From sequence record MF547662.1: DNA of 64,000 nt. One strand, given 5' to 3'. Source of the DNA: Clostridioides phage LIBA6276. A model generated the notes under the pieces. The model saw nothing but the letters and a program-made list of their open reading frames with translations. It had not been told where the DNA came from and did not search any database. A program made the position numbers and the translations under genes. This document shows, piece after piece, positions 2,621 to 36,910 of the stretch (position 1 is its first letter; the number at the start of each line of letters is the position of its first letter).

Positions 2621-4073
2621 AAAAGATTATACTTTAGACCAAATAAAGTACTTAAATGAACAATTAAGACAAAGAAATTATGCAATGATAGAAAACACTA
2701 TAAATCTATCAAATGAAATGTATAAGATAAGAAATATAAGTAGAGACCAAGTAAGAAAAGCTATGACAGACCCTTACAAAAACGTAGAATTACTACAAAA
2801 GGTAAGTCTTTTGCTTAAAGAAACATCCGGTACATATAAAAGAATTCTAAATATGATTTCAACCATGAATACATTTGACCATTATATTATACCAATAAAT
2901 ATTTCTAAATTTAAAGATAAAAATGATTATGTCAACTCTTTTTTTAAGTCAGCTGCACTTCTAAAAAAATATCAACTTAAACATATTTGTCCTTGGATAA
3001 CTGAAAAAGTGTTAGAACAAGGAGAAATATATCTATATAAAATTGAAGATTCAAAATGCATAATGATGCAACAAATACCAGCCTCTTATTGTACAATAAC
3101 ATCTAAAGTAAATGGAGTATTAAGGTATGGAATTGATTTACGAAAAATAAATAAAAAGACTCTATCAGCATTTCCAATAGAAGTTCAAGAAGCATATAAA
3201 AAATTGAATGATGGAAGATTAAAAAAAGAAGACTTAATAGAAAATAAGTATTATGAATTAAGTGATAATGCTGTGGCATTTAATATAGATATTGATTCGA
3301 CAAAAGGAATACCATTTTTTAGTTTTTTATTTGATGATATCCTGGAACTCGAAGATATGAAAGATTTAAAGGGTTCTAATGCTATCATTGAAAGCATTAA
3401 GTTAATACATGGGAAAGTTCCTTATGGTAAAGATGGTGAGCCACTAGTTGCTTTTGATTTATTAAGTGCTTACTACCATGATATAAAATCAAACTTACCA
3501 GCTGGTACATCTGTAGCAGTAACCCCACTAGATATGGAAGGAATTAATCTAAGTGATGGAAAATCAAAGATTAATGATTATGTTAAAGAAGCAAAAGAAT
3601 TTATATTTGATAACGCTGGAATTAATACAGCTCTTTTTAACTCAGATAAAATAAATACAGAATCAATTGCAGATGGTGTTATAGCAGATAGTTTAATACC
3701 AATGAGGATTCAAAATGAAATAGAGACATGGATAAATTATGAACTAAATAAAAAGAACTCATCAAAAGCATTCCAACTTTACTTTGTTGGTACAACTCAT
3801 TTTAACCAATCTAAAATATCACAACAACTTAGAGAAAATATAAATAGTGTAGGAGATAGTAGAACAGTATATTTAGCTAGTACTGGAAAAGAGCCAATTG
3901 AAATTGCTAATTTATATAAGGCAGAACAATTAATGGAAATAGATGATTTATTGCCAGTTAAACAGGCTTCATATACATTTTCAAATAATGATGTTGGAAG
4001 ACCTACTAATGAAGACAAAGGTGATGGTGGTACAAATGGAAATAAAACAGATAGAAAAGATGAAAACAAATAA
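2589..4073 (+). CDS. portal protein
   Basis: 494 aa ORF immediately after terminase, start overlapping terL end; size and acidic Gly-rich C-terminus typical of portal. Confidence 0.55.
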   Translation: METIIELKGDKKDYTLDQIKYLNEQLRQRNYAMIENTINLSNEMYKIRNISRDQVRKAMTDPYKNVELLQKVSLLLKETSGTYKRILNMISTMNTFDHYIIPINISKFKDKNDYVNSFFKSAALLKKYQLKHICPWITEKVLEQGEIYLYKIEDSKCIMMQQIPASYCTITSKVNGVLRYGIDLRKINKKTLSAFPIEVQEAYKKLNDGRLKKEDLIENKYYELSDNAVAFNIDIDSTKGIPFFSFLFDDILELEDMKDLKGSNAIIESIKLIHGKVPYGKDGEPLVAFDLLSAYYHDIKSNLPAGTSVAVTPLDMEGINLSDGKSKINDYVKEAKEFIFDNAGINTALFNSDKINTESIADGVIADSLIPMRIQNEIETWINYELNKKNSSKAFQLYFVGTTHFNQSKISQQLRENINSVGDSRTVYLASTGKEPIEIANLYKAEQLMEIDDLLPVKQASYTFSNNDVGRPTNEDKGDGGTNGNKTDRKDENK

Positions 4074-4275: not shown

Positions 4276-5658
4276 TTGAAAGTAGTTAGTATTCCATGTG
4301 GATTTGAGACATTTTCTAATGAAGAGGATGATAGAAAATTAAATGTAAAATTAAAGATTTTACATGAAGGTAAAAATTTAAATAAAACTAAGTTTAATTT
4401 GTCAACTATAAATGAAGCGGAATCAACTTTATCAGATATACCAATACTTGGATATATAAAATATGATGAAGAACAAAATGTGGTAGATTTTGATGAGCAT
4501 AATATGATAACTAAAGTTGTAAAGGATGATAATGGTTATTCTATAGAGTATAAATTCTTAGAAAGACCACTTGGTGTAATTCCAAATAATACAGAGATAA
4601 CTTATACAGAAGAAGATGGAAAGACATATTTAAACTGTACAGGACTTATTTGGAAGCATTATTCTAATTCAGCATATCAATTATTGACAGAGTCAAAGTC
4701 AAAAAGTGTAAGTATGGAAATAGCAGTTGAAGATGGAGAAGTTGATAAAGCTGATGGTTATTATAATATTAAAAAATTTAGTTTTTTAGGAATTACTATT
4801 TTAGGAGATGATGTTGCTCCTGGAATTGAAGGGGCATCTATAAATACATATAGTAATTTTTCAAAATATAAAAAAGCAATCTATGATATTTGCAAAGAAA
4901 TGTATTCATTTAAAGGGAAGGAGGAAAATGTATTGGATAAAAAGAAAAATGATTTATTATCAATAGAAGAAATAGATACTTCTATTAATAGTCAATTAAA
5001 AAATAAGATGGTTGAGGTTGAAGACCCTTACTGGGGAGGTAAATACACAGCTAGAGAATATTATTTAAGAACTATTCTCCCTGAAGAAAAAATAGCTATA
5101 TTAGAAGACAATATAAATTATTGTAATTATTATGGTGTACCATATTCTATAGATGGAGATGATGTTGTTTTAGATTATGAAAACAGAAAATCATATATAG
5201 AAGAATGGAGAGAGAAAAAAGAAGGAGAAGTTATAGAAACTTTTTCTAAAGAAGATACTTTAAAAGAATTAGTTCTTGAAAAGTTTAATGAAAAAGAGAT
5301 TGAAATAAAAAATCTGACTGAAGAGTTGGAAAGTTTAAGAAAATTTAAGGCTGACAAAGAAATGGAAGAATATAAAGTAGAAGTTTCTAGTGTTATCTCA
5401 GAATTTAATTCTTTAACAGAAGAGGAAGTTAAGACTTTTAAAGAATCTGCTATAAAGAAAGAGATATCTTTAGAAGATTTAAGAAAAGAGTTGAGTTTAC
5501 TTGATTATGCTAAGTTAAAAGAAAATACAAAGAAATTTAATTCTGATAAGGAACTTATAGTTGAAGAAGCAAAAATAAATTATTCATCTACATTAGAAGA
5601 TGAAAATAAAGATACAAAATCATATGAACAAATATTAAGAAAACACTCAAATAAGTAG
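4276..5658 (+). CDS. putative head morphogenesis / scaffolding protein
   Basis: 460 aa, TTG start after GGAGGTG RBS; C-terminal third is highly charged coiled-coil (KE-rich), typical of scaffold proteins; position between portal and capsid. Confidence 0.35.
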   Translation: MKVVSIPCGFETFSNEEDDRKLNVKLKILHEGKNLNKTKFNLSTINEAESTLSDIPILGYIKYDEEQNVVDFDEHNMITKVVKDDNGYSIEYKFLERPLGVIPNNTEITYTEEDGKTYLNCTGLIWKHYSNSAYQLLTESKSKSVSMEIAVEDGEVDKADGYYNIKKFSFLGITILGDDVAPGIEGASINTYSNFSKYKKAIYDICKEMYSFKGKEENVLDKKKNDLLSIEEIDTSINSQLKNKMVEVEDPYWGGKYTAREYYLRTILPEEKIAILEDNINYCNYYGVPYSIDGDDVVLDYENRKSYIEEWREKKEGEVIETFSKEDTLKELVLEKFNEKEIEIKNLTEELESLRKFKADKEMEEYKVEVSSVISEFNSLTEEEVKTFKESAIKKEISLEDLRKELSLLDYAKLKENTKKFNSDKELIVEEAKINYSSTLEDENKDTKSYEQILRKHSNK

Positions 5659-23244: not shown

Positions 23245-23504
23245 TTTTCACCTCCAAGATATCTTTATAATTATTATACCACATAAAGTAATAAAATATT
23301 ATACTTGACATTACATTATGTGGAGTGTATTATAAAAATATAAATTACTTTAAGTGATAAAATTACTTTTAGTAATTAAAAAGAAGCCTTACAAACTTTG
23401 GACGGCGAGTAAGACTTCTTAAATAGCTGATATAATTATCAACTTGAATAGAATGATTATATCAGCTTCTTATAAAAAATACAACTTATAAGGAGGGATT
23501 AATT

Positions 23505-24548
23505 ATGGAGATAATTAATAGAGAAAATGAAAAAAGAATAATAAGCTTTAACAATGAATTATTTGGAGAAATAAGAACAATTAGAATTGAAAATGAACCC
23601 TATTTTGTCGCAACAGATATTGCAAAAGCTCTTGGGTATAAGGACACAACAAATGCAATTAAACAACATTGTAGGTGGGTGGTGAAACACCACATACCTC
23701 ACCCACAAAGTAAAACTAAAACTTTGGAAGTGAATATAATACCAGAAGGTGATATGTATAGATTAATTATAAATAGCGAATTACCAAGTGCTGAAAAATT
23801 TGAGCGTTGGGTATTTGATGAAGTTCTTCCATCAATAAGAGAACATGGAGCTTATATGACTAATGAAGCATTAGAGAAGGCAATCAATGACCCAGATTGG
23901 ACTATAAAATTACTTACAGAACTAAAGAAAGAGAGAGCTACTAAAGAAAAGTTAAAAGTAGAGCAAGAGAAAAATAAACCTAAACTTGAACTAGCTAATG
24001 CTATAGAAAGTTCATCAAGCTCAATACTAATTGCTCAACTATCTAAGATATTAAATCAGAATGGAGTAGATATAGGGCAGAATAGATTGTTTGAGTGGAT
24101 GAGAAATAATGAATATCTAATTAGGAAGAAAAGAGCTGACCATAATACTCCAACTCAAAAGTCAATGGATTTGAAAGTATTAGAGGTTTCTGAGAGTACT
24201 GGGATAGATAAAGATGGAAATACTGTAATAAGACAAACTCCTGTTGTAACTGGAAAAGGACAAATATATTTTGTAAATAAGATATTGAAAGAGAATAACA
24301 AAGTACTTAAGAGATTCATGATAAATAATGATTACATAAGAGGAGTTATGGTTGAGATAGGTAAAACATATGCTATATATGACCATGAGTACTATGGATT
24401 TATTGGTATATTAAAGAGTGTAAGAAATGAGAAAATAAGAGTAGAAAAAATAGGAGATGTTTCTAGCAGTAGGGATATTCCAATCTGTATGATAGATTAC
24501 ATAGAAGAAGCTAGTAAAGAAGATATTAATAAATATTTGAGTAAATGA
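23505..24548 (+). CDS. antirepressor-like protein, Bro-N + KilA-C domains
   Basis: ELFGEIRTIRIENEPYFVATDIAKALGY and ERWVFDEVLPSIREHGAYMT motifs. Confidence 0.6.
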   Translation: MEIINRENEKRIISFNNELFGEIRTIRIENEPYFVATDIAKALGYKDTTNAIKQHCRWVVKHHIPHPQSKTKTLEVNIIPEGDMYRLIINSELPSAEKFERWVFDEVLPSIREHGAYMTNEALEKAINDPDWTIKLLTELKKERATKEKLKVEQEKNKPKLELANAIESSSSSILIAQLSKILNQNGVDIGQNRLFEWMRNNEYLIRKKRADHNTPTQKSMDLKVLEVSESTGIDKDGNTVIRQTPVVTGKGQIYFVNKILKENNKVLKRFMINNDYIRGVMVEIGKTYAIYDHEYYGFIGILKSVRNEKIRVEKIGDVSSSRDIPICMIDYIEEASKEDINKYLSK

Positions 24549-27853: not shown

Positions 27854-29332
27854 ATGGTTGAAGAGTTTAAAATTAAAACCAGTATTGAACTTGATGACAA
27901 AGAAGCTAGAGAAAAATTAGAAAAGTTAAAAAATAGTGGTCAAGATAAGCCTATTAAATTAAATTTGAAAATAGGTGAATTAGATAAGTTATCACAGCAA
28001 GCAGAACAACTAAAAGGCATATTTAATAAAGCTTTCAAGATTGATAGTACTGCTTTAAGTAATTTAAAGCAAATTGAATCTACTATGAAAGAAATAAATA
28101 AACTAAGTAGAAGAAGTCAAGATAGTTTACTTGGTGGTGGCTCTGGAAATACAGGAAATATAAATAATGAACAACAAGATTTAATAAGACAATATAAAGA
28201 AATTTCAAATGTTGTGTCTAGGCTTCAAAATCAGATGAGGACAGGTTTAGGGGATAGTTCAATTGAAAGAACAACAGAGCAAATTGAAAGATTAAAAAGA
28301 CAATTGGATTCAGTGTATGCACAAATGAATTCATCATCTCAAGCTAGAATGGATATGTTTGATGCTTCAAGAGCAACAAGAGATTTAGCTGATATGAATA
28401 GAAGTCTTTCAAGAATAGAAGATATGGCAACACAAGCATCTGCTAGGCTTAATGGATTAGGCGATAATATAGATACAGATAAAGTAAATAGACTTAGGAA
28501 TGAGTTACAAGAATTAAAACAGATAGCTAGTAGAAATATAGATTTAAATCTTGATGTAGGTAATATAGTTAATAGAATACAAGAGATAAATCAAGAAGTT
28601 AGAAATTTAGAAAGAGTTGATAGCTTAAGGTCTAATTTCAGCAGAATAGAAGATTCTATTAGACAGGCATTTGGGAATGAGAGAGTTGAAGCTTTTAGAC
28701 GTTCTTTAGAGCAACTTCAAGGTTCGGCAGGAAATCTAAATGGTGATTTTAACAATATATTTGATAGACTAACAAGAGAAATGAGAGACGCGAGACAAGA
28801 AGCTGAAAGATTAAATAATACAGTTTCAAAGGGTGGAGGATTTTTTAATGATTTTTATTCATCTATAGCATCATATTCGATTGGAGATATGTTAGGAGAT
28901 GCTTTAACTGACGGAATTAGGTCTATGAAAGATGTTATATTAGAGCTTGATAGCTCTATGACTGACCTTAAAAAGGTTGCAGAACCAACAGATATTGATA
29001 GCACATCTGAGTTAGATAAGATAAGGGAAAAAGCAATACAAACAGCTAAAGATGTAGGAATGAGTGCATCACAAGTTCAAGAATCAATAGCATCTTCTTT
29101 ACAAGCAGGAATTGGAGGTATGCAAGAAAGTATTGCTGCTGCAAGACAATCAATGATACTTGCCAATGTAGGGGACATGGATGTTGAAGGTGCTTCTTCA
29201 GCAGTAAACACAATAATAAATGGATTTAGAATTGAACCTTTAAAAGAAATGCAAGTGCAGGTTGGAAATACTACAAAGAAAACAACAGAATTAACTGCTG
29301 CAATGGATATGCTAAATTGTTTGGCGTGTTAG
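27854..29332 (+). CDS. tail tape measure protein, N-terminal segment
   Basis: 492 aa, coiled-coil rich; N-terminus paralogous to remnant at 26638; tail-module position. Confidence 0.55.
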   Translation: MVEEFKIKTSIELDDKEAREKLEKLKNSGQDKPIKLNLKIGELDKLSQQAEQLKGIFNKAFKIDSTALSNLKQIESTMKEINKLSRRSQDSLLGGGSGNTGNINNEQQDLIRQYKEISNVVSRLQNQMRTGLGDSSIERTTEQIERLKRQLDSVYAQMNSSSQARMDMFDASRATRDLADMNRSLSRIEDMATQASARLNGLGDNIDTDKVNRLRNELQELKQIASRNIDLNLDVGNIVNRIQEINQEVRNLERVDSLRSNFSRIEDSIRQAFGNERVEAFRRSLEQLQGSAGNLNGDFNNIFDRLTREMRDARQEAERLNNTVSKGGGFFNDFYSSIASYSIGDMLGDALTDGIRSMKDVILELDSSMTDLKKVAEPTDIDSTSELDKIREKAIQTAKDVGMSASQVQESIASSLQAGIGGMQESIAAARQSMILANVGDMDVEGASSAVNTIINGFRIEPLKEMQVQVGNTTKKTTELTAAMDMLNCLAC

Positions 29333-29654
29333 ATAGAAATATCTAATATTATGAGGGGGCAAAATCGGTGAAGACTGAGATGTTACCACCGAGGTAAATT
29401 AAAGAATTAAAAGACTTTAATCACCGTAACGCATAGGAAATGAACCTATGCTATTTTTATGTTTAAAATAGCATAGAATATAATTTTCCCACGAGTGTCC
29501 TCCATCTGAACAAGTAATCTTGAAGATGAAAATATATGCTGAACTTACATGAATAAGAAATGTAAGAACTACAAGATAAAAAGCTTGTAGGGTAACAATT
29601 TGAAACTATGCAGGGAATAATTATGCAATTGGAACAGCAGGTGTTGCCGAAGCG
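29333..29654 (+). other. 322-nt structured non-coding segment interrupting tape measure coding (candidate small group I intron or intergenic spacer of a split gene)
   Basis: stops in the TMP frame; several hairpins (CTATGCTATTTT..AAAATAGCATAG; TTACC..GGTAA; GGTGA..TCACC); the downstream reading frame opens at 29616 (NYAGNNYAIGTAGVAEA MKRGG...). Confidence 0.3.
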
Positions 29655-32600
29655 ATGAAACGTGGAGGTAGTGTACTTCATGAGTATGGCGTCAGTTTAG
29701 GTGACACAGTGGGTATGATAACAGCAACAAATGAAGCGATACAAAATCCAGAAAAAGTAGGTAATGGTTTAAAAAGTGTCGCAATAAATTTAGCAGGTAT
29801 GAAAGTTTCAGCTGATGATGGTACACTTTCTTTAAATAAAACTGCAAAAGGCTTAAAGGAAATAGCTGGAATCACAATTTATAAAAATAAAGATACTGGC
29901 GAATTGAAGAATATGGTTCAGCTCTTAGATGAGTTGAAAGGCAAATGGGGAGAACTCAGAGAGGATGAACAAAAAGGATTGGCTGAAGCAATAGCAGGTA
30001 AGCAACAAGCAGCTATATTCCAATCCTTAATGGGTAATTATGAGACTTTTAAAGAAATAAGGGAAGAATTCAGTCAGGGGCTTCAATTTGGTTCGGCTGA
30101 GGCTGAAAACAAACAATATTTAGATAGTCTTGCAGGGCGTTTAAATGAGTTGAAAACAATATGGGCAGATATATTCCAAAATGTATTTAATTCAAATACA
30201 ACATATGGATTTTTAGATGGTTTAATATCTGTATCTAATGGAATAAATAGTGTTATAAAAACATTAGAAAGATTAAAATTAACAACACCAGCATTAATAG
30301 GAAGTTTTATGACTTTAAAAACGTTATTCTCTGGTATGGGAATGACAAATGGTACTAGAAATGTGGCTAGACTTATAAATCCTTTAAATATGATAGGAAC
30401 TCCTATTAAAGCTACAACTACAATACTACAATCATTTAGACATGCAGTAATGGCGGCAAATGTAGCTGGTGCTAATGGAGCAAATGTAATTACTAGAGCA
30501 GGAACAGGTTTGGGAGCATTAAGAAAAAGTTTATCTAGGACTTCTATTGGTATTGGAACATTAAATATAGCAACAAGTTTGTTGAACGGGGCTATGATAG
30601 GTTTGGCTACTTTTGCTATATCTAAAGGAATACAATGGATAGATGATACTATTCACAAGTATGAAAAATTAGCAGAAAAACAAAAAGAAGTTATTGGAAC
30701 TACTACAAGCGAGATAAGCTCCTTGCAACAAAAGAAAAAGAGTTTAGAAGGTATATCAGAAGAGTACAATAATTTAGCTAGTAAGACCGAAAAGACTGCT
30801 GATGAAACTGAAAGATTTAGCGAACTTAAACAACAAATTGCAGATATAGCACCAGAATTAGTATTGGGTGTAGATGAGAATAATGACCCTATTCTAAATA
30901 TGAGTGGTAACTTAGATGAGGTCATTAATAAATTAAGAAAGGCTATAGAAGAAAAAAATAAACTTTTAAAGTCTCAAGAAGATGAACTTGCAATAACTAC
31001 ATCAAAGACTGCACCAGATACAAAAAAAGACCTTGATAAAGAAAAGAAAAAACTTGATAAAGTTCTTGAAGATGAGCATAATTTATTTAAAAATGCTTTA
31101 AGTAAATCTAATTTTAAAGAACAAACAGAAGCATTAAAAAAGGCTTACAATCAACAAGAAACAGATTTTGCAGAACATCATCAAAAACTTCTTACTGAAT
31201 ATGAAAAATATAATGAAGAAGAAGAGGTAATGCAGAAAAGGGCGATTAATAGATTAACTAATTCTGATATATCTAAAACATATGCTAAACAATCTGAACA
31301 AAAGAAAAGTAAAATGAATGAGCTTGTAGCTAATATGAATTGGCATGACTATAGTGTAGGACAACAGAATAGCATTATAAGTGCTTTTGATAAAATAAGT
31401 GAGTCAATTCCTGTTGAAAAATTAGACCAGTGGAATAAGAAGATAACTGATGCTAACATAAATTATCAAGCATCTGGCGATATGAACCAATATACTAAGG
31501 AACTACAAGGTTTAGCAAATGAACTTCAAAAGCTAAGTGGTGGAAGTATAAGTGCTGATACTTGGCTTATTGGATTACAACAAGGTTTTTCTGGATTAGA
31601 CTTAGCCAGTATGAAATTACATACTTTCTTGAAAAGTTATGGTTCATCTTTAGCTGAACTTGAAAACAAAGACAGTCTTGCAATAAAGCTTAAAAATCAA
31701 TTTGATGCATTAAATGATTTTTCTCAAAATTTAGAAGTCAATGGTAAAATCAATGTAAAACTGCTTGAAGATATACAAAGTGGAGAAGCTGGTCAAGATT
31801 TACCACAACAACTAAAAGATATAATAAATGGATTCACATTTGGAGAAGATTCACAAATAGAAGCTCAGGCTCAATTAGCCCTACAAGTAACAACTACGTT
31901 GCAAAACGAAGGTCAATTATCTGATGATGTTGTTAAACAATTAAATGACTTATTTAAGGGTAAATTACAATTAACAGATGACATTCTTAAAAATGGACTA
32001 AAAATCAGTGATAAGTTACCTGCATTGCCAGGAAATATGGTTCAAGCATTAAATGAGCAATTTGCAAATGCTTTTACAGGAGACAATGCTCCTGAAATCA
32101 CACCTAGTGTAAATGGAGAAAAAGCTAAAAAGGAATTAAAAGAGTTAGAAAAATTCAAACAAGATACTTTTAAATCAGATAAAATTGTGACTGAAATTAA
32201 TAATAAAGGACTAGATTTCGCAAAAAAAGACTTGAGTGTATTAAAAGAACAGTTGGATAGATTTAAAAATGAAGATACAAAGTTGTCTTTTACTACAGAT
32301 TGTGCAGATGCTTTTAAAGATGTAAATTCTTTAGAGGAAGCTAGAAAAAAAATATCTGCTCCAATGAGTTTAAAATATGATATAGATGTAGATAAAAAAG
32401 GATTGACTGAAGCAAAAAAAGTCTATGATATTTTACCTGATAATCTCAAAAAAAAGATAGAAACAGAAGTAATAGGTATAGATAAATTAGACACATTACA
32501 AAACTTAATAGATAAAGCTCCAAATAAAAAAGAAACTATATTTGAAATAATTAATAAAAATCCAGATAAGCTAAATGAGATAGATGAAATTCTTAATAAC

Positions 32601-35600
32601 GTTCCAAATGATAAAAAGGAAGCTGTTATTGATTTTATAGTAAATAATTTAGACCAACTTGAAAAAGCTAAAAATGTACAAGAATTTATAAACAATTTAC
32701 CTCCAGAAATAAAAAAACAACTTGGAATAGAAGTTGAAGGAGGAGAAAATGCAGAGAAAACTGTTAATACAGTTCAAAATGCAGATGGAACTAAGGCTGA
32801 CCTTTTAGTAAATGCAGAAGTAAATGGAGAATCACAAGTAGTTGAATGCATAGAAACATTGGATAAGAATGGTAATAAAACATACACTCCTAATTTAAAT
32901 CCTCAAGTTAATAATAGTGAAAAAGTTGTTCAGTGCATGAGAATATTAGATGAATATGGAAATGAATCTTATATTCCAATTGTAAGTCCTCAAGTTACTA
33001 ATGAAGAAGGGCTTAACAGTACTAAACAAAAAATGGATGAGTTAGATAATAAAACAGTAACTTCAACTGTACAAATAAAGACAGAAGGAGAAACTGAAGT
33101 TGAACAAGCAACCAATTTTATAGAAAATACAAATCCAACTAAGGTTATTGAGTTATCCATAAACAACTCTGGTAAAGATGAAATTGACAATACAAAACAA
33201 AAGTTAGATGAACTTAATAATGAAAAAGCCACTCCTACTATTGAAGCTACAGGTGCAGAACAAGCATCCAAACAATTAAATCAATTATCACAAAAAGCAC
33301 AAGAAATTGGGCAAGGTAATTATCATATAAATGTTAGTACTTCAACTGAACAAGGGGCTAAGAATATTTCAGGACTTATAGCTAGAGTAAAACAATTCTT
33401 AGCTTTGAAAGTATCTACACTTGTATTTAGAACTGAAACTGCACAAGCAGCAAAAAATGTATCAGGTTTGTTAGCCAAAGTACAAAGTTATGTTAGCCGA
33501 TATGGTGGAAAAACTATAAAGACTACATTTAGTGCATTAACTGCAACTGCTGCAAAGAACATATCAGGGCTTATTAGGAAAATAGAGTCATTTAAATCAA
33601 ATTATGCAGGAAAAACATTCACTACTACATTTGTAACTAATAAAGTGACTAATAGTTCTGGTGGTGGAGGAGGAGGAAATAGTTCAGATAAGACCAATAA
33701 AACTGAACGTACCTCTGTTACTAATGTAACTCCAATTCCAGCTAATCTATTAGCTCAACCTAGAACATCAGAACCAGCACCAATAAGTGACGAAACTCCT
33801 GTAACACCAAAACCATCCTTATTCTCAAGAGCAGTATCAAGAGCCACATCCGCTTTCAAAGTAATCAAACCTAAAGTTACAATAAACAATGACACAATAG
33901 ACTCATCTGTAAAATATAGTATAGAATTATTTAAAGAGTTAGAAAATGCTATATCAGCAGTAACAAATGAAATAGCTCTATTAGACAAAAAAATGGAACA
34001 TGCTACAGGTGATGAGAAGATTAAATACTTACAGGAGCAAAATAAATTATTTGCTCAACAAAAAGATTTAATAAAACAACAACAAGATGGATATAAAGCT
34101 GAAAGTAACAGACTTAAAAATAGATTAAAAGAAAAGAAAATGGGCTTTAAGTTTGATGATACTGGAAATCTAACTAACTATGAAGAAAAGTTAATATCAA
34201 TAGAAAAAGAATTAGACAAATTAAATTCAAAGTCTGGTGACAAAGAAAATAAAAAAGATGAATCCAGAAAAAAAGAGTTGGAAGAAACTAAGAAAGTCCT
34301 TGAAGAATATATTAAAGTTACATTTACAGAACTGCCTAAATGTGAGCAAGAATGGGAAGAATACAATAATAAAATTAAAGAACACAATGAGGAGTTAAGG
34401 AAAGCACAAGAAGAAATGTGGAAACTTAATAAGAATTCCACATGGACTTCTATGTACAAAGATGTAGAGCAAGTAAATAATGAAATAGCAATGATAGATG
34501 TATTACTTAAAAATGCTACAGGTGATGAGCAGATAGAGTTGTTAGAAAAGAAAAAAGAGTTAATGGCCAAGAAGGCTAAAGAACTATCTGAAACAACAGC
34601 ATATCTTCAAGAAACACAAAAAGAGCTACAACAAAAGCTACAAGGCTATGGATTTACATTTAGAGATAATGGCGATATAACTAACTTCATTCAACATAAA
34701 AATCAACTTAAAAAGAACATGACTGATGAAGAATTTAAGAGAATGGAAGAGGCAGCAGAGGGATATTTGGATTTATTGATAAATAAAATACCTGATGCCA
34801 ATAAGGAAATTGCTGAATCTAAGGAAGAAATTGAAGCATTAAATAAAGAAATTCAAGATGCTTATAAAGACCAGCTTAAAGAAGCTCAAAGCCTACAAGA
34901 AAAAATTAGAGACATGTATAAAAAAGAGCTTGAAGAGAGACTTAAAGAAATAGATAAAGAAACTAAAGCTAAAATTGATTCTCTTAAAAAGCAACAAGAT
35001 GCTTACAATGATTCAAGAAAAGAAGCCAAATATAAAGATGATTATGAAGAACAACAAGATGTAATAAGTGATTTAGAAAAACAAATAGCAATAGCTGAAA
35101 GAGATAGTTCTTTAAGTGGTCAGAAGAAACTTAAAGATTTACAAAAACAATTAAAAGAAGAACAGAAGAAATTACAGGATTTAGTACAAGACCATGTAGA
35201 CGACCAAGTTAACGATATGTATGACAAGGAATCTGACAGACTACAAGAAGAAGCAGATAAGTTAAAAGAAGAGTTAGAGAAAAAATACTCAGATGAAAAT
35301 TTAGTTGATTTAATTAATGAAGCAATTTCAAGCGGTAAATTTGTAGGTCTTGATGGAGAGGTTAAGAAACTTCAAGATGCTATTATTGAATACATAAATA
35401 AATATGAAGATGGTATGTTGGCAATGGGTTCTGTCACTAAGCAGGAATGGCTCGATAGATTAAAAGAAGGTAAAGAGACATTAGAAGATATTAATGACAT
35501 ATTGGATGAATTAGATTTAAGTAAATTTGCTATGCCTAATTATAATCCTCCTTCAAATTCTCGTTCAAGAAGTACATCTCCAATATCAGCAGTTAATTAT

Positions 35601-35723
35601 AATTCACCATTTGTTGTTGTACAAGGGAATGTAACTAAAGATGTAATGCCTGAATTTGAAAAGAAGATGAGGAAAATGATTGAAGAAAATAACAAAAAAA
35701 TTATTTCTAATACTAGGTCTTAA
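29655..35723 (+). CDS. tail tape measure protein, C-terminal segment
   Basis: 2022 aa, long coiled-coil/low-complexity stretches, Gly-rich hydrophobic N-terminal region typical of TMP; frame is open from 29616. Confidence 0.6.
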   Translation: MKRGGSVLHEYGVSLGDTVGMITATNEAIQNPEKVGNGLKSVAINLAGMKVSADDGTLSLNKTAKGLKEIAGITIYKNKDTGELKNMVQLLDELKGKWGELREDEQKGLAEAIAGKQQAAIFQSLMGNYETFKEIREEFSQGLQFGSAEAENKQYLDSLAGRLNELKTIWADIFQNVFNSNTTYGFLDGLISVSNGINSVIKTLERLKLTTPALIGSFMTLKTLFSGMGMTNGTRNVARLINPLNMIGTPIKATTTILQSFRHAVMAANVAGANGANVITRAGTGLGALRKSLSRTSIGIGTLNIATSLLNGAMIGLATFAISKGIQWIDDTIHKYEKLAEKQKEVIGTTTSEISSLQQKKKSLEGISEEYNNLASKTEKTADETERFSELKQQIADIAPELVLGVDENNDPILNMSGNLDEVINKLRKAIEEKNKLLKSQEDELAITTSKTAPDTKKDLDKEKKKLDKVLEDEHNLFKNALSKSNFKEQTEALKKAYNQQETDFAEHHQKLLTEYEKYNEEEEVMQKRAINRLTNSDISKTYAKQSEQKKSKMNELVANMNWHDYSVGQQNSIISAFDKISESIPVEKLDQWNKKITDANINYQASGDMNQYTKELQGLANELQKLSGGSISADTWLIGLQQGFSGLDLASMKLHTFLKSYGSSLAELENKDSLAIKLKNQFDALNDFSQNLEVNGKINVKLLEDIQSGEAGQDLPQQLKDIINGFTFGEDSQIEAQAQLALQVTTTLQNEGQLSDDVVKQLNDLFKGKLQLTDDILKNGLKISDKLPALPGNMVQALNEQFANAFTGDNAPEITPSVNGEKAKKELKELEKFKQDTFKSDKIVTEINNKGLDFAKKDLSVLKEQLDRFKNEDTKLSFTTDCADAFKDVNSLEEARKKISAPMSLKYDIDVDKKGLTEAKKVYDILPDNLKKKIETEVIGIDKLDTLQNLIDKAPNKKETIFEIINKNPDKLNEIDEILNNVPNDKKEAVIDFIVNNLDQLEKAKNVQEFINNLPPEIKKQLGIEVEGGENAEKTVNTVQNADGTKADLLVNAEVNGESQVVECIETLDKNGNKTYTPNLNPQVNNSEKVVQCMRILDEYGNESYIPIVSPQVTNEEGLNSTKQKMDELDNKTVTSTVQIKTEGETEVEQATNFIENTNPTKVIELSINNSGKDEIDNTKQKLDELNNEKATPTIEATGAEQASKQLNQLSQKAQEIGQGNYHINVSTSTEQGAKNISGLIARVKQFLALKVSTLVFRTETAQAAKNVSGLLAKVQSYVSRYGGKTIKTTFSALTATAAKNISGLIRKIESFKSNYAGKTFTTTFVTNKVTNSSGGGGGGNSSDKTNKTERTSVTNVTPIPANLLAQPRTSEPAPISDETPVTPKPSLFSRAVSRATSAFKVIKPKVTINNDTIDSSVKYSIELFKELENAISAVTNEIALLDKKMEHATGDEKIKYLQEQNKLFAQQKDLIKQQQDGYKAESNRLKNRLKEKKMGFKFDDTGNLTNYEEKLISIEKELDKLNSKSGDKENKKDESRKKELEETKKVLEEYIKVTFTELPKCEQEWEEYNNKIKEHNEELRKAQEEMWKLNKNSTWTSMYKDVEQVNNEIAMIDVLLKNATGDEQIELLEKKKELMAKKAKELSETTAYLQETQKELQQKLQGYGFTFRDNGDITNFIQHKNQLKKNMTDEEFKRMEEAAEGYLDLLINKIPDANKEIAESKEEIEALNKEIQDAYKDQLKEAQSLQEKIRDMYKKELEERLKEIDKETKAKIDSLKKQQDAYNDSRKEAKYKDDYEEQQDVISDLEKQIAIAERDSSLSGQKKLKDLQKQLKEEQKKLQDLVQDHVDDQVNDMYDKESDRLQEEADKLKEELEKKYSDENLVDLINEAISSGKFVGLDGEVKKLQDAIIEYINKYEDGMLAMGSVTKQEWLDRLKEGKETLEDINDILDELDLSKFAMPNYNPPSNSRSRSTSPISAVNYNSPFVVVQGNVTKDVMPEFEKKMRKMIEENNKKIISNTRS

Positions 35724-35861
35724 TATATGTAATTGGTCTTTATTTATTATTCACTCATTTACTTACGTTTTATAATTTATAGTCAGATTTTTTTTGAAAA
35801 TATATATTTATCTAATAAAAAATATTGTTTATAAAAAACGTATTTATGATATAATAGTAAT

Positions 35862-36003
35862 ATAAATGATATAAATTTATATCATAAAGACATAAAAAAA
35901 GAGACTACAACTATTTGTGCTAGGGTGTCTCTTCATAAATAAGCGAAGTGTTAATTAGAGGAAGAATCACCTGAATTGCCGTTCGGGTGATTCTTAATTT
36001 TTT
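35862..36003 (+). ncRNA. candidate type I antitoxin sRNA (locus 1)
   Basis: TGATATAAT extended -10 at 35847-35855; rho-independent terminator GAATCACC..GGTGATTC + T-run 35964-36003; antisense to 3' end of toxin ORF. Confidence 0.35.
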
Positions 36004-36130
36004 GCAACGTTTTCTTAAACTCATCTATTTCTTTAAAGAGTCTATTTAAATTCTGAACCAACTTAATCAAACTAATAATTATAGTTGTAAGAAATGTTAT
36101 TATCGTTAACAAACAAATTAGATATTTCAT
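35951..36130 (-). CDS. small membrane peptide, type I toxin-like (59 aa)
   Basis: MKYLICLLTIITFLTTIIISLIKL.. TM helix + charged tail; GGAGGTG RBS; own promoter TTAACA-17-TGGTATAAT; long 5' UTR. Confidence 0.45.
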   Translation of the reverse strand: MKYLICLLTIITFLTTIIISLIKLVQNLNRLFKEIDEFKKTLQKIKNHPNGNSGDSSSN

Positions 36131-36391
36131 AATATCATATCACCTCCCCTCTTGATTTGACATGGGAAGGCTTATGTATATGAAGATTCACCCTAATAGT
36201 TTTTTTATGTAGTCTCTAAAAATATTATACCATAAATTACCAATATGTTAAATTTAATATTATATTGTCTACAATTGTAAAAGAATATTGTGTTCTAAGA
36301 AGTTATTCTATTAATAGTATAGCTTTTTTATTTTTCAATGAAGATAATGACAACATTGACTATTTTGATAATATTGGAGTATAATAGTAAT

Positions 36392-36545
36392 ATAAATGAT
36401 ATAAATTTATATCATAGGGACATAAAAAAGAGACTACAAACTATTTGCTGTAGGGTGTAGTTCTTAAAGTTAACAATAAAAAGAATAGATTTATGTATTA
36501 CTTTCAGAATCACTAGACCCGCCAGTCTGGTGATTCTTTAGTTTT
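36392..36545 (+). ncRNA. candidate type I antitoxin sRNA (locus 2)
   Basis: -10 TATAAT 36380-36385; terminator AGAATCAC..GTGATTCT + T-run at 36507-36545. Confidence 0.35.
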
Positions 36546-36652
36546 CTAATAGATGCTTTCAAGTTTAAGATTGCATCTATTAGCTTTGTCAAATGATTGA
36601 TTATTCTTGTAATCATAATTATCATTATTAAAAACAAAACTAAGTACTCCAT
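36491..36652 (-). CDS. small membrane peptide, type I toxin-like (53 aa), paralog of 35951-36130
   Basis: MEYLVLFLIMIIMITRIINHL...KNHQTGGSSDSESNT; GGGGTG RBS. Confidence 0.45.
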   Translation of the reverse strand: MEYLVLFLIMIIMITRIINHLTKLIDAILNLKASIRKLKNHQTGGSSDSESNT

Positions 36653-36910
36653 AGTCTCACCCCCTTTCTTACTGGGGATTTTAACTAAAGAGCCATCACC
36701 CTAATAGTCTAAACTGTAGTCTCTAAAAATATTATACCATAATTTTCCAATATGTTAAATTTAATATTATATTGACGACAGGAGTAGAATAAAGATATAA
36801 TACAGATAACAGAAAATTTAAAAATTTTACATAAGAATTACTACTTATCTATGCCACCTTAAAAAGTGGCTATTTTTCTATTCTGGTATATATTTAAGGA
36901 GGTGTTACAA

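Follow-up and report, generated by a model that had tools for sequence, protein, structure and literature searches.

Group I introns in phage genes for structural proteins and DNA metabolism are classical, and those in orf142 of Staphylococcus phage Twort, which belong to subgroup IA2, are experimentally proven ribozymes with a known crystal structure. In prophages of the Bacillus cereus group, introns of types IA1 and IA2 occupy three sites of the tape measure gene (TMP-IVS1, TMP-IVS2 and TMP-IVS3); closely related introns are found at different sites with P1 and P10 adapted to each, and many have no endonuclease gene (Tourasse and Kolsto 2008, PMC2504315). Clostridioides difficile carries IStrons such as CdISt1, group I introns fused to insertion sequence (IS) elements, whose 3' part is an IS200/IS605 or IS607 element and whose ribozyme has P7.1 plus P7.2 and P9.0–P9.2 (PMC4227781). 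Here we describe an interruption of the tape measure gene in a 64,000-nt stretch of Clostridioides phage LIBA6276 (MF547662.1), referred to as the window, which in BLAST comparison is 100% identical, at the same coordinates, to Clostridioides phage LIBA2945 (MF547663.1). The interrupting element (29314–29602), which we call the LIBA2945 intron, is very probably a self-splicing group I intron that contains no open reading frame (ORF) and lies inside the PhageMin_Tail domain of the gene. We found neither it nor its homologue in phage phiCD211 described in searchable papers. A first-pass annotation had suggested a small group I intron at this place, and that suggestion is upheld because an exact in-frame junction, with a U.G pair in P1 and a terminal G, restores a motif of uninterrupted homologues, because the topology of the RNA is that of a group I intron and is backed by covariation, because relatives hold homing endonuclease genes in loops of the same RNA, and because a model of the family detects the group I introns of Twort.

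The coding sequence is split between two + strand ORFs, ORF1 (27854–29332, 492 aa) and ORF2 (29655–35723, 2022 aa), which lie in different frames and appear in the GenBank record of MF547663 as two coding sequences (CDS) labelled 'ATPase, involved in DNA repair' and 'hypothetical protein'. No + strand ORF of at least 40 aa is listed between them, in line with the earlier description of the insert as ORF-free; a minus-strand ORF of 72 aa (29463–29681) overlaps the insert and is a mechanical, unsupported one. The Pfam domain PhageMin_Tail (PF10145) is divided by the break, with profile positions 1–76 in ORF1 and 83–201 in the ORF2 frame (26.9 and 50.1 bits), and becomes a single match over positions 1–201 (88.9 bits) in the spliced protein. 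Excision of 29314–29602 restores the host frame exactly: joining U29313 to A29603 in silico gives one open frame of 2526 aa, close to the ∼2500 aa anticipated for the combined product, with both exons open over 7.6 kb. At the join, marked here and below by a caret, the spliced protein reads ...TAAMDML^NYAGNNYAIGTAGVAEAMKRGG..., which restores the motif ...AMDML^NYAGNNYAIG..., and the peptide predicted across it is DMLNYAGNNYAIGTAGVAEAMK.

The position of the junction was set by homologues, independently of P1. As the first-pass annotation had envisaged, uninterrupted homologues do span it: seven were found by protein database search, all reading AMD(L/M)(L/M)NYAGNN(Y/F)AI without a gap at the join (for example ELKNAMDLMNYAGNNFAIGTDG and ELTEAMDLLNYAGNNYAVGTDG), with N127 invariant and A129 almost so. 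At the DNA level, an intron-less allele (contig L172) is colinear with the spliced exons, with 66 of 90 bases identical and no insertions or deletions, and phiCD211, which has no intron at the LIBA2945 site, reads ...LDLSNYAGNNFAI... unbroken there. The last six sense codons of ORF1 and its stop (29314–29332, encoding NCLAC before the stop) are intron sequence, the TAG at 29330–32 lying 17 nt into the intron. On the other side, 29603–29654 is conserved coding sequence, with the frame of ORF2 open from 29604 onwards. The stretch 29604–29654 comprises 17 conserved codons (NYAGNNYAIGTAGVAEA) with no in-frame ATG, GTG or TTG in the ORF list and translation, which are thus translatable only after splicing. 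The first-pass annotation had coding stop at 29332 and resume at 29616–29655 in a new frame, around a 322-nt insert at 29333–29654. The change of frame stands; the limits do not, since the homologues and the splice place the end of exon 1 at 29313 and the start of exon 2 at 29603, leaving 289 nt. The gene is thus divided as follows (R1 is the covariance model of the intron family introduced below).

27854..29313, + strand: exon 1 of the tape measure gene, ending in ...GAT ATG CU and so contributing 2 nt of a Leu codon (homologues and in-silico splice)
29314..29602, + strand: predicted group I intron, ORF-less, 289 nt (BLAST family, covariation, R1 score of 150.5 bits, folding z = -6.07)
29603..35723, + strand: exon 2 of the tape measure gene with its stop codon; annotated ATG at 29655 (translation, Pfam)

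The same observations bear on the view, also raised in the first-pass annotation, that these are two separate genes with an ordinary intergenic spacer, whose 492-aa N-terminal and 2022-aa C-terminal tape measure polypeptides cooperate. GenBank does list two CDS, the ATG of ORF2 at 29655 has a weak AGGTG ∼12 nt upstream, and unspliced RNA would yield the 492-aa product. However, the break falls mid-motif within a single Pfam domain, the 17 start-less conserved codons precede the first possible start, and the end of ORF1 is read from the intron, the corresponding phiCD211 ORF ending alike (LLAC) despite a different intron site. The spacer is moreover a conserved structured RNA that is present in unrelated genes and phages, and we regard two genes as very improbable. 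The MF547663 annotation needs to be corrected, its two CDS (27854–35723) giving way to a single, intron-containing tape measure gene that encodes 2526 aa. Tail length is set by the length of the tape measure protein, so the right gene model matters for the large phiCD211-like phages of C. difficile.

The splice sites conform to the group I pattern. At the 5' splice site, U29313 forms a wobble pair with G29323 in a 5-bp P1, and the final base of the intron is G29602. P1 differs in the relatives Javan355 (GCGAU/GUCGC) and 6ec (GGGU/GCCC), with U.G at the splice site in each, and splicing by the U.G and terminal-G rule produces open frames in phiCD211 (two introns), Javan355 and 6ec and a contiguous PhageMin_Tail domain in phiCD211 and 6ec. 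Six other in-frame junctions in the window that also follow a U and end the intron in G (29317/29615, 29318/29610, 29318/29613, 29320/29615, 29322/29602 and 29322/29614) were rejected for want of a P1 fit; none of their products (MLNNNY, MLNSGNN, MLNWNN, MLNCNN, MLNCLNYAGNN and MLNCLNN) matches the invariant NYAGNN of the homologues.

That a structured insert splits the gene is borne out by the single Pfam domain shared by two ORFs and by the folding energy of the spacer (minimum free energy -80.1 kcal/mol, z = -6.07, none of 100 shuffles equally good). The fold was derived from 5 (alignment A1) and then 24 (alignment A3) diverse ORF-less copies, and the 3' domain was aligned over 56 sequences, all <85% identical. 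In A3, 94.2% of cells form standard pairs, compared with 35–41% in slid controls, in which the 3' partners were shifted by 1–3 columns, and 69.5% after shuffling; the covariation score is 0.578 (≤0.10 when slid), and 55 of 79 pairs are altered on both sides (22–35 when slid). The elements of the intron, with paired regions denoted P, joining segments J and loops L, are listed below; percentages are those of alignment cells that form pairs.

29309..29327, + strand: P1, exon AUGCU (29309–13) with guide GGCGU (29323–27); wobble U29313.G29323 at the 5' splice site; loop AAAUUGUUU
29319..29322, + strand: putative guide for P10, GUUU, able to pair with AAAC (29603–06), the first bases of exon 2
29328..29347, + strand: P2 hairpin, 8 bp, GAAA tetraloop at 29336–39; its 5' strand holds the ORF1 stop; 89.5% paired, 8/8 pairs vary on both sides
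29355..29360, + strand: P3 5' strand GGGGGC, partner 29497–29502; pseudoknot with P7
29365..29392, + strand: P4 (UCGGUG 29365–70/CACCGA 29387–92), J4/5 AA, P5 (29373–75/29382–84) and L5; 96.3% paired, 5/9 pairs covary
29393..29425, + strand: P6 (GGU 29393–95/ACC 29423–25) and P6a (29398–404/29415–21); 97.5% paired, 8/10 covary
29429..29435, + strand: P7 5' strand, A29429, bulged C29430 and GCAUA 29431–35; partner 29535–29540
29436..29489, + strand: P7.1 (GGAAA 29436–40/UUUCC 29485–89) and 12-bp P7.1a (29446–57/29465–76); covariation
29490..29496, + strand: CACGAGU, joining P7.1 to the P3 3' strand; near-invariant in 56 sequences
29497..29502, + strand: P3 3' strand GUCCUC; covariation
29503..29528, + strand: P8 hairpin, CAUCU/AGAUG outer and CAAG/CUUG inner; outer part 93–94% paired, inner part poorly aligned
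29529..29540, + strand: J8/7 AAAAUA (29529–34) and P7 3' strand UAUGCU (29535–40); block TGAAAATRTATGC invariant in 56 sequences
29544..29566, + strand: P9 hairpin, 7 bp; 100% paired, 5/7 covary
29569..29590, + strand: P9.1 hairpin, 7 bp, conserved loop AUAAAAAG; 98.7% paired, 6/7 covary
29591..29602, + strand: 3' tail GGUAACAAUUUG, terminal G29602 at the 3' splice site; TAAC(A) block conserved; aligns with Twort 3' ends ...GUAACAUAAUUG

The strands follow one another in the order P3 5', P4–P5, P6, P7 5', P7.1, P3 3', P8, P7 3', P9, with P3 and P7 crossing, which as modelled is the topology of a group I intron with an IA-type insertion after P7. The crossing helix P3 (29355–60/29497–502) is well supported, with 99.3% of A3 cells paired and 5/6 pairs covarying, and J3/4 is A-rich. 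P7.1 is paired in 99.2% of cells in A3 and in 99.3% in the 56-sequence alignment, with 5/5 pairs covarying in both; P7.1a, which varies in length, is 88.8% paired in the latter, and compensatory changes preserve it in relatives. The outer pair of P7, A29429–U29540, is A–U in 37 and G–C in 19 of the 56 sequences, without exception. It is followed by the bulge C29430 and by G29431–C29539, the putative guanosine-binding pair in this model, and J8/7 (AAAAUA) is 6 nt long. The P7.1 plus P7.2 pair of hairpins, a trait of IA2, was not encountered: a single stem P7.1/P7.1a precedes an unpaired 7-nt joiner. The modelled layout looks more like IA1 (P7.1/P7.1a) than IA2. The joiner has the consensus CA(C/A)GAGU; being almost invariant in the 56 diverse sequences and without an identified partner, it probably takes part in tertiary contacts or in the active site. 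The internal loop of P8 resembles a tetraloop receptor.

Hairpins proposed from the single sequence fared unevenly against the alignments. The 12-bp hairpin CTATGCTATTTT/AAAATAGCATAG noted in the first-pass annotation is P7.1a, at 29446–57/29465–76. Its GGTGA/TCACC hairpin was mispaired, GGTGA covarying with CACC(GA) at 29387–92 (P4) and not with TCACC at 29421–25, and its TTACC/GGTAA hairpin is not kept in relatives. Two pairings considered during modelling were also discarded. The minimum free energy fold favours a local hairpin GCAUAGG/CCUAUGC; CCUAUGC belongs to the covarying P7.1a, GG to P7.1, and GCAUA/UAUGC is P7. A P3 made of GGGGG with UUCCC (29486–90) is unsupported in relatives, the real partner being GUCCUC at 29497–502.

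Such a structure suggests how the gene could be expressed. In the late transcript, the intron would fold into P1–P2, the P4–P5–P6 stack and a P3–P8 domain pseudoknotted with P7. A free guanosine at G29431–C29539 would attack after U29313, held in the wobble of P1 (AUGCU/GGCGU), and the 3' OH of U29313 would then attack after G29602, with P10 (GUUU/AAAC) aligning exon 2. The exons would be ligated as ...GAUAUGCU^AAACUAUGC... into one mRNA for the 2526-aa tape measure protein, the junction expected in spliced RNA being GATATGCT^AAACTATGC, also written ...GCAATGGATATGCT^AAACTATGCAGGGAAT... Unspliced RNA would give the 492-aa fragment only, because of the TAG 17 nt into the intron. The sequence analysis shows the boundaries, the restored frame and domain, the covarying fold and the homology to proven group I introns; catalysis, guanosine binding and splicing in vivo are inferred.

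The link to proven ribozymes comes from R1, a covariance model built from the 3' domain only of the LIBA2945 intron family. The LIBA2945 intron scores 150.5 bits with R1, among the highest scores seen, with every modelled helix fully paired, and a search of the window with R1 found no second copy. R1 matches introns of Staphylococcus phage Twort at E = 1.2e-5, 2.9e-5 and 1e-4; the first and last of these fall in the orf142 region, where the standard Rfam group I model RF00028 gives 64–101 bits. The alignment spans J6/7–P7, J8/7–P7', the UGAAC joiner, P9, P9.1 and the ...GUAACAnnAUUG 3' tail, and sets GCAUA/UAUGC on GACUA/UAGUC of Twort.

Several observations weigh against a group I intron. RF00028 has no hit in the window at the gathering score or at E≤0.1, and none at E≤10 on 29100–29900; it does not match the family members in four relatives (L001–L004), nor any of 18 further loci at E≤1. 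Within the fold, the P7 sequence GCAUA/UAUGC deviates from the usual GACUA/UAGUC, and its five inner pairs never vary, so that covariation speaks neither for nor contrary to them. The J3/8 spacer is absent, and no pairing partner was found for the CACGAGU joiner (29490–29496) when one was sought. The ORF list holds no homing endonuclease gene in the LIBA2945 copy, which leaves its mobility unexplained, and splicing is deduced from DNA sequence and not from phage RNA.

The failure of RF00028, 0 of 23 stretches that bear the family (the window, 4 relatives and 18 loci), is not taken as a refutation, because the same model finds a classical intron 33 nt downstream of the family copy in phiCD211 (41.7 bits, E = 3e-9), because it misses the family members throughout and because R1 reaches Twort. 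R1 scores 17 of the 18 further loci at 69–151 bits. The miss most likely reflects the Rfam model, with P7 and the region that follows lying off its consensus. The first-pass annotation had recommended a covariance-model search, with the absence of group I core pairings counting as refutation; the search did come back negative with RF00028, yet, as the whole family is missed, that rule would have misled. Annotation pipelines based on Rfam will likewise miss this family, which is common in Firmicute phages, and a covariance model specific to the family would close the gap. Introns probably go unrecognised in many phage genes that are recorded as 'split', those for tape measure proteins and helicases among them.

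The silence of Rfam could also be read as a sign that some other element landed in the gene, whether a non-autonomous small transposon, the remnant of an IStron, a ribozyme of another class or a gene for a small RNA, and C. difficile is known for IStrons (PMC4227781). We find this hardly conceivable: the boundaries 29313/29314 and 29602/29603 show neither terminal inverted repeats nor a target duplication, and the insert has no transposase or other ORF; the topology, the U.G splice site, the terminal G, the bulged P7 and the similarity to Twort are all those of a group I intron. No other Rfam family or ribozyme matched the insert, at gathering or at permissive thresholds.

A different concern is that the element is a group I intron by descent that no longer splices, which would make the tape measure gene a pseudogene and the prophage or plasmid that carries it defective. 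ORF-less introns can decay, and this one has no homing endonuclease. However, the score of 150.5 bits with all modelled helices intact and the exons open over 7.6 kb argue for an active rather than a decayed intron. The exons on either side match P1 and P10, and the same intron is present at the same site in related Clostridioides elements, namely two viral contigs (L009 and L053) and two protein clusters that end in ...MDMLNCLAC, one of which comprises 14 sequences on 10 contigs. A dead intron is in our view quite improbable, and active splicing of a group I intron is the reading we retain.

The family extends well beyond these phages. BLAST finds the insert at 89–91% identity in phiCD211, phiCDIF1296T, pCD1602_4 and ES-S-0173-01, where the flanking coding DNA has no such match, and its 3' two-thirds at 70–77% identity in unrelated Bacillus, Staphylococcus, Streptococcus and crAss-like phages. 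The core motif is present in at least 120 viral contigs and in 43 contigs among species-representative genomes, its carriers being mostly Streptococcus, Staphylococcus, Clostridia, Bacilli, Enterococcus and Limosilactobacillus, with a few metagenome bins otherwise labelled. Five such members (L126, L127, L133, L141 and L165) sit in bins labelled Gammaproteobacteria, Myxococcales, Cytophagales, Treponema or Saccharibacteria; these may be misbinned phage contigs or a true spread past Firmicutes.

Some members carry genes. The tape measure genes of Javan355 (L003) and 6ec (L004) are split by the same RNA together with a homing or HNH endonuclease gene; P1, P2, P3 and the P4 5' strand lie upstream of that gene, which places it in L5. 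In Bacillus phage PJN02 (L002), a RecD-like helicase gene is split and genes labelled 'mobile intron protein' and 'endonuclease' precede the RNA; P1, P2, P3 and the P4 5' strand lie downstream of the endonuclease gene, which is therefore in L1. In L035, L036 and L062, an ORF-like insertion begins after the P9 5' strand. This suggests that the ribozyme scaffold has been invaded by genes repeatedly and independently. The endonuclease-free LIBA2945 copy has presumably been passed down together with its phage, or has moved by recombination or reverse splicing.

Introns cluster in the PhageMin_Tail domain, a hot-spot with at least six distinct sites, located as follows.

ML^NY: LIBA2945
AG^NN: 6ec
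EA(M/I)^: L009 and L053
QNA^EK and TIG^IN: phiCD211
IAGK^: L172

In L009 and L053, the second insertion is 54 nt downstream of the LIBA2945 site, after GCCGAAGCGAT^, with a P1 like that of Javan355 (GCGAU/GUCGC); the site corresponds to the position after T29656 in the window and is empty in LIBA2945. The L172 member (4304–4505), further down the same gene after ...SIAGK, scores 79.8 bits with R1. Six database proteins (P0003, P0004, P0006, P0008, P0009 and P0010) stop abruptly within the domain, which suggests still more intron sites.

The phiCD211 family copy (L001 3006–3293, NC_029048) is not annotated. It is ∼91% identical to the LIBA2945 intron and interrupts ...ESVQNA^EKVG..., ∼45 codons downstream of the LIBA2945 site. 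Its P1 target is the same AUGCU, and its P10 guide is UUUU, not GUUU, opposite GAAA of its exon 2. A second, ORF-less intron of ∼275 nt, annotated as Intron_gpI (record positions 28891–29156), follows 33 nt later (3327–3601); once both introns are spliced out, the frame is open and the Pfam domain contiguous. Judged by colinearity, the true 3' end of this second intron would be G3601, not 3582. We regard it as quite possible, without favouring it, that these introns form a coherent IA-type sub-family, recognisable by its GCAUA/UAUGC P7, single P7.1/P7.1a and CACGAGU joiner and always missed by Rfam, and that LIBA2945 and phiCD211 record a recent, endonuclease-free switch of site, for example by reverse splicing through the shared AUGCU. 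If so, in many phage and prophage genomes such introns are unannotated and their host genes recorded as split.

Elsewhere in the window, the tape measure stop is followed by 1.1 kb poor in ORFs (35800–36850) that consists of two tandem units of ∼530 bp with repeats 88–96% identical. Each has a + strand promoter-like site, a strong terminator hairpin (35962–95; 36506–37) and a convergent near-consensus promoter on the - strand (36251–24; 36758–31). Below these - strand promoters lie small unannotated ORFs (36130..35951, 59 aa; 36652..36491, 53 aa), both encoding an N-terminal hydrophobic helix and a charged tail. By sequence the two units look like unannotated type I toxin-antitoxin modules, which we take to be akin to those of C. 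difficile prophages. At 23418–23507, upstream of an antirepressor gene, the Rfam caiA RNA gives a weak match, at 34.6 bits and E = 0.054 below its gathering score of 55.5, that is probably due to chance.

The crowding of group I introns at conserved sites of phage structural genes is established, and their occurrence in structural genes of Firmicute phages, mentioned in the first-pass annotation, has been published for prophage tape measure genes (PMC2504315). To judge from the published description, the TMP-IVS introns of the B. cereus group are among the closest known counterparts: they interrupt the same gene, in Firmicute prophages, at several sites, many copies are endonuclease-free, and their type is likewise IA. 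The LIBA2945 and phiCD211 copies, ∼91% identical and ∼45 codons apart with P1 and P10 adapted, repeat the relationship described there, whereas the host genus and phage lineage differ. With the Twort orf142 introns the family shares a P2 with a GNRA loop, an extra pairing after P7, and a P9 often closed by a GAAA loop. However, the second and third pairs of the LIBA2945 P7 (GCAUA/UAUGC) are exchanged relative to GACUA/UAGUC, there is one extra element (P7.1 with P7.1a) where Twort has P7.1 plus P7.2, and RF00028 detects Twort (64–101 bits) but never the LIBA2945 family. The annotated Intron_gpI of phiCD211, a sister phage, interrupts the same domain of the same gene and is also ORF-less; it differs in being of the classical group I kind, with 41.7 bits for RF00028, and in its insertion site. 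The IStrons share the C. difficile host, an IA-type ribozyme without a homing endonuclease and insertion into genes made harmless through splicing, whereas the LIBA2945 element, at 289 nt, has neither an IS nor an ORF. Set beside these systems, the LIBA2945 intron is of value for annotation and because it brings to light a gap in the standard Rfam model.

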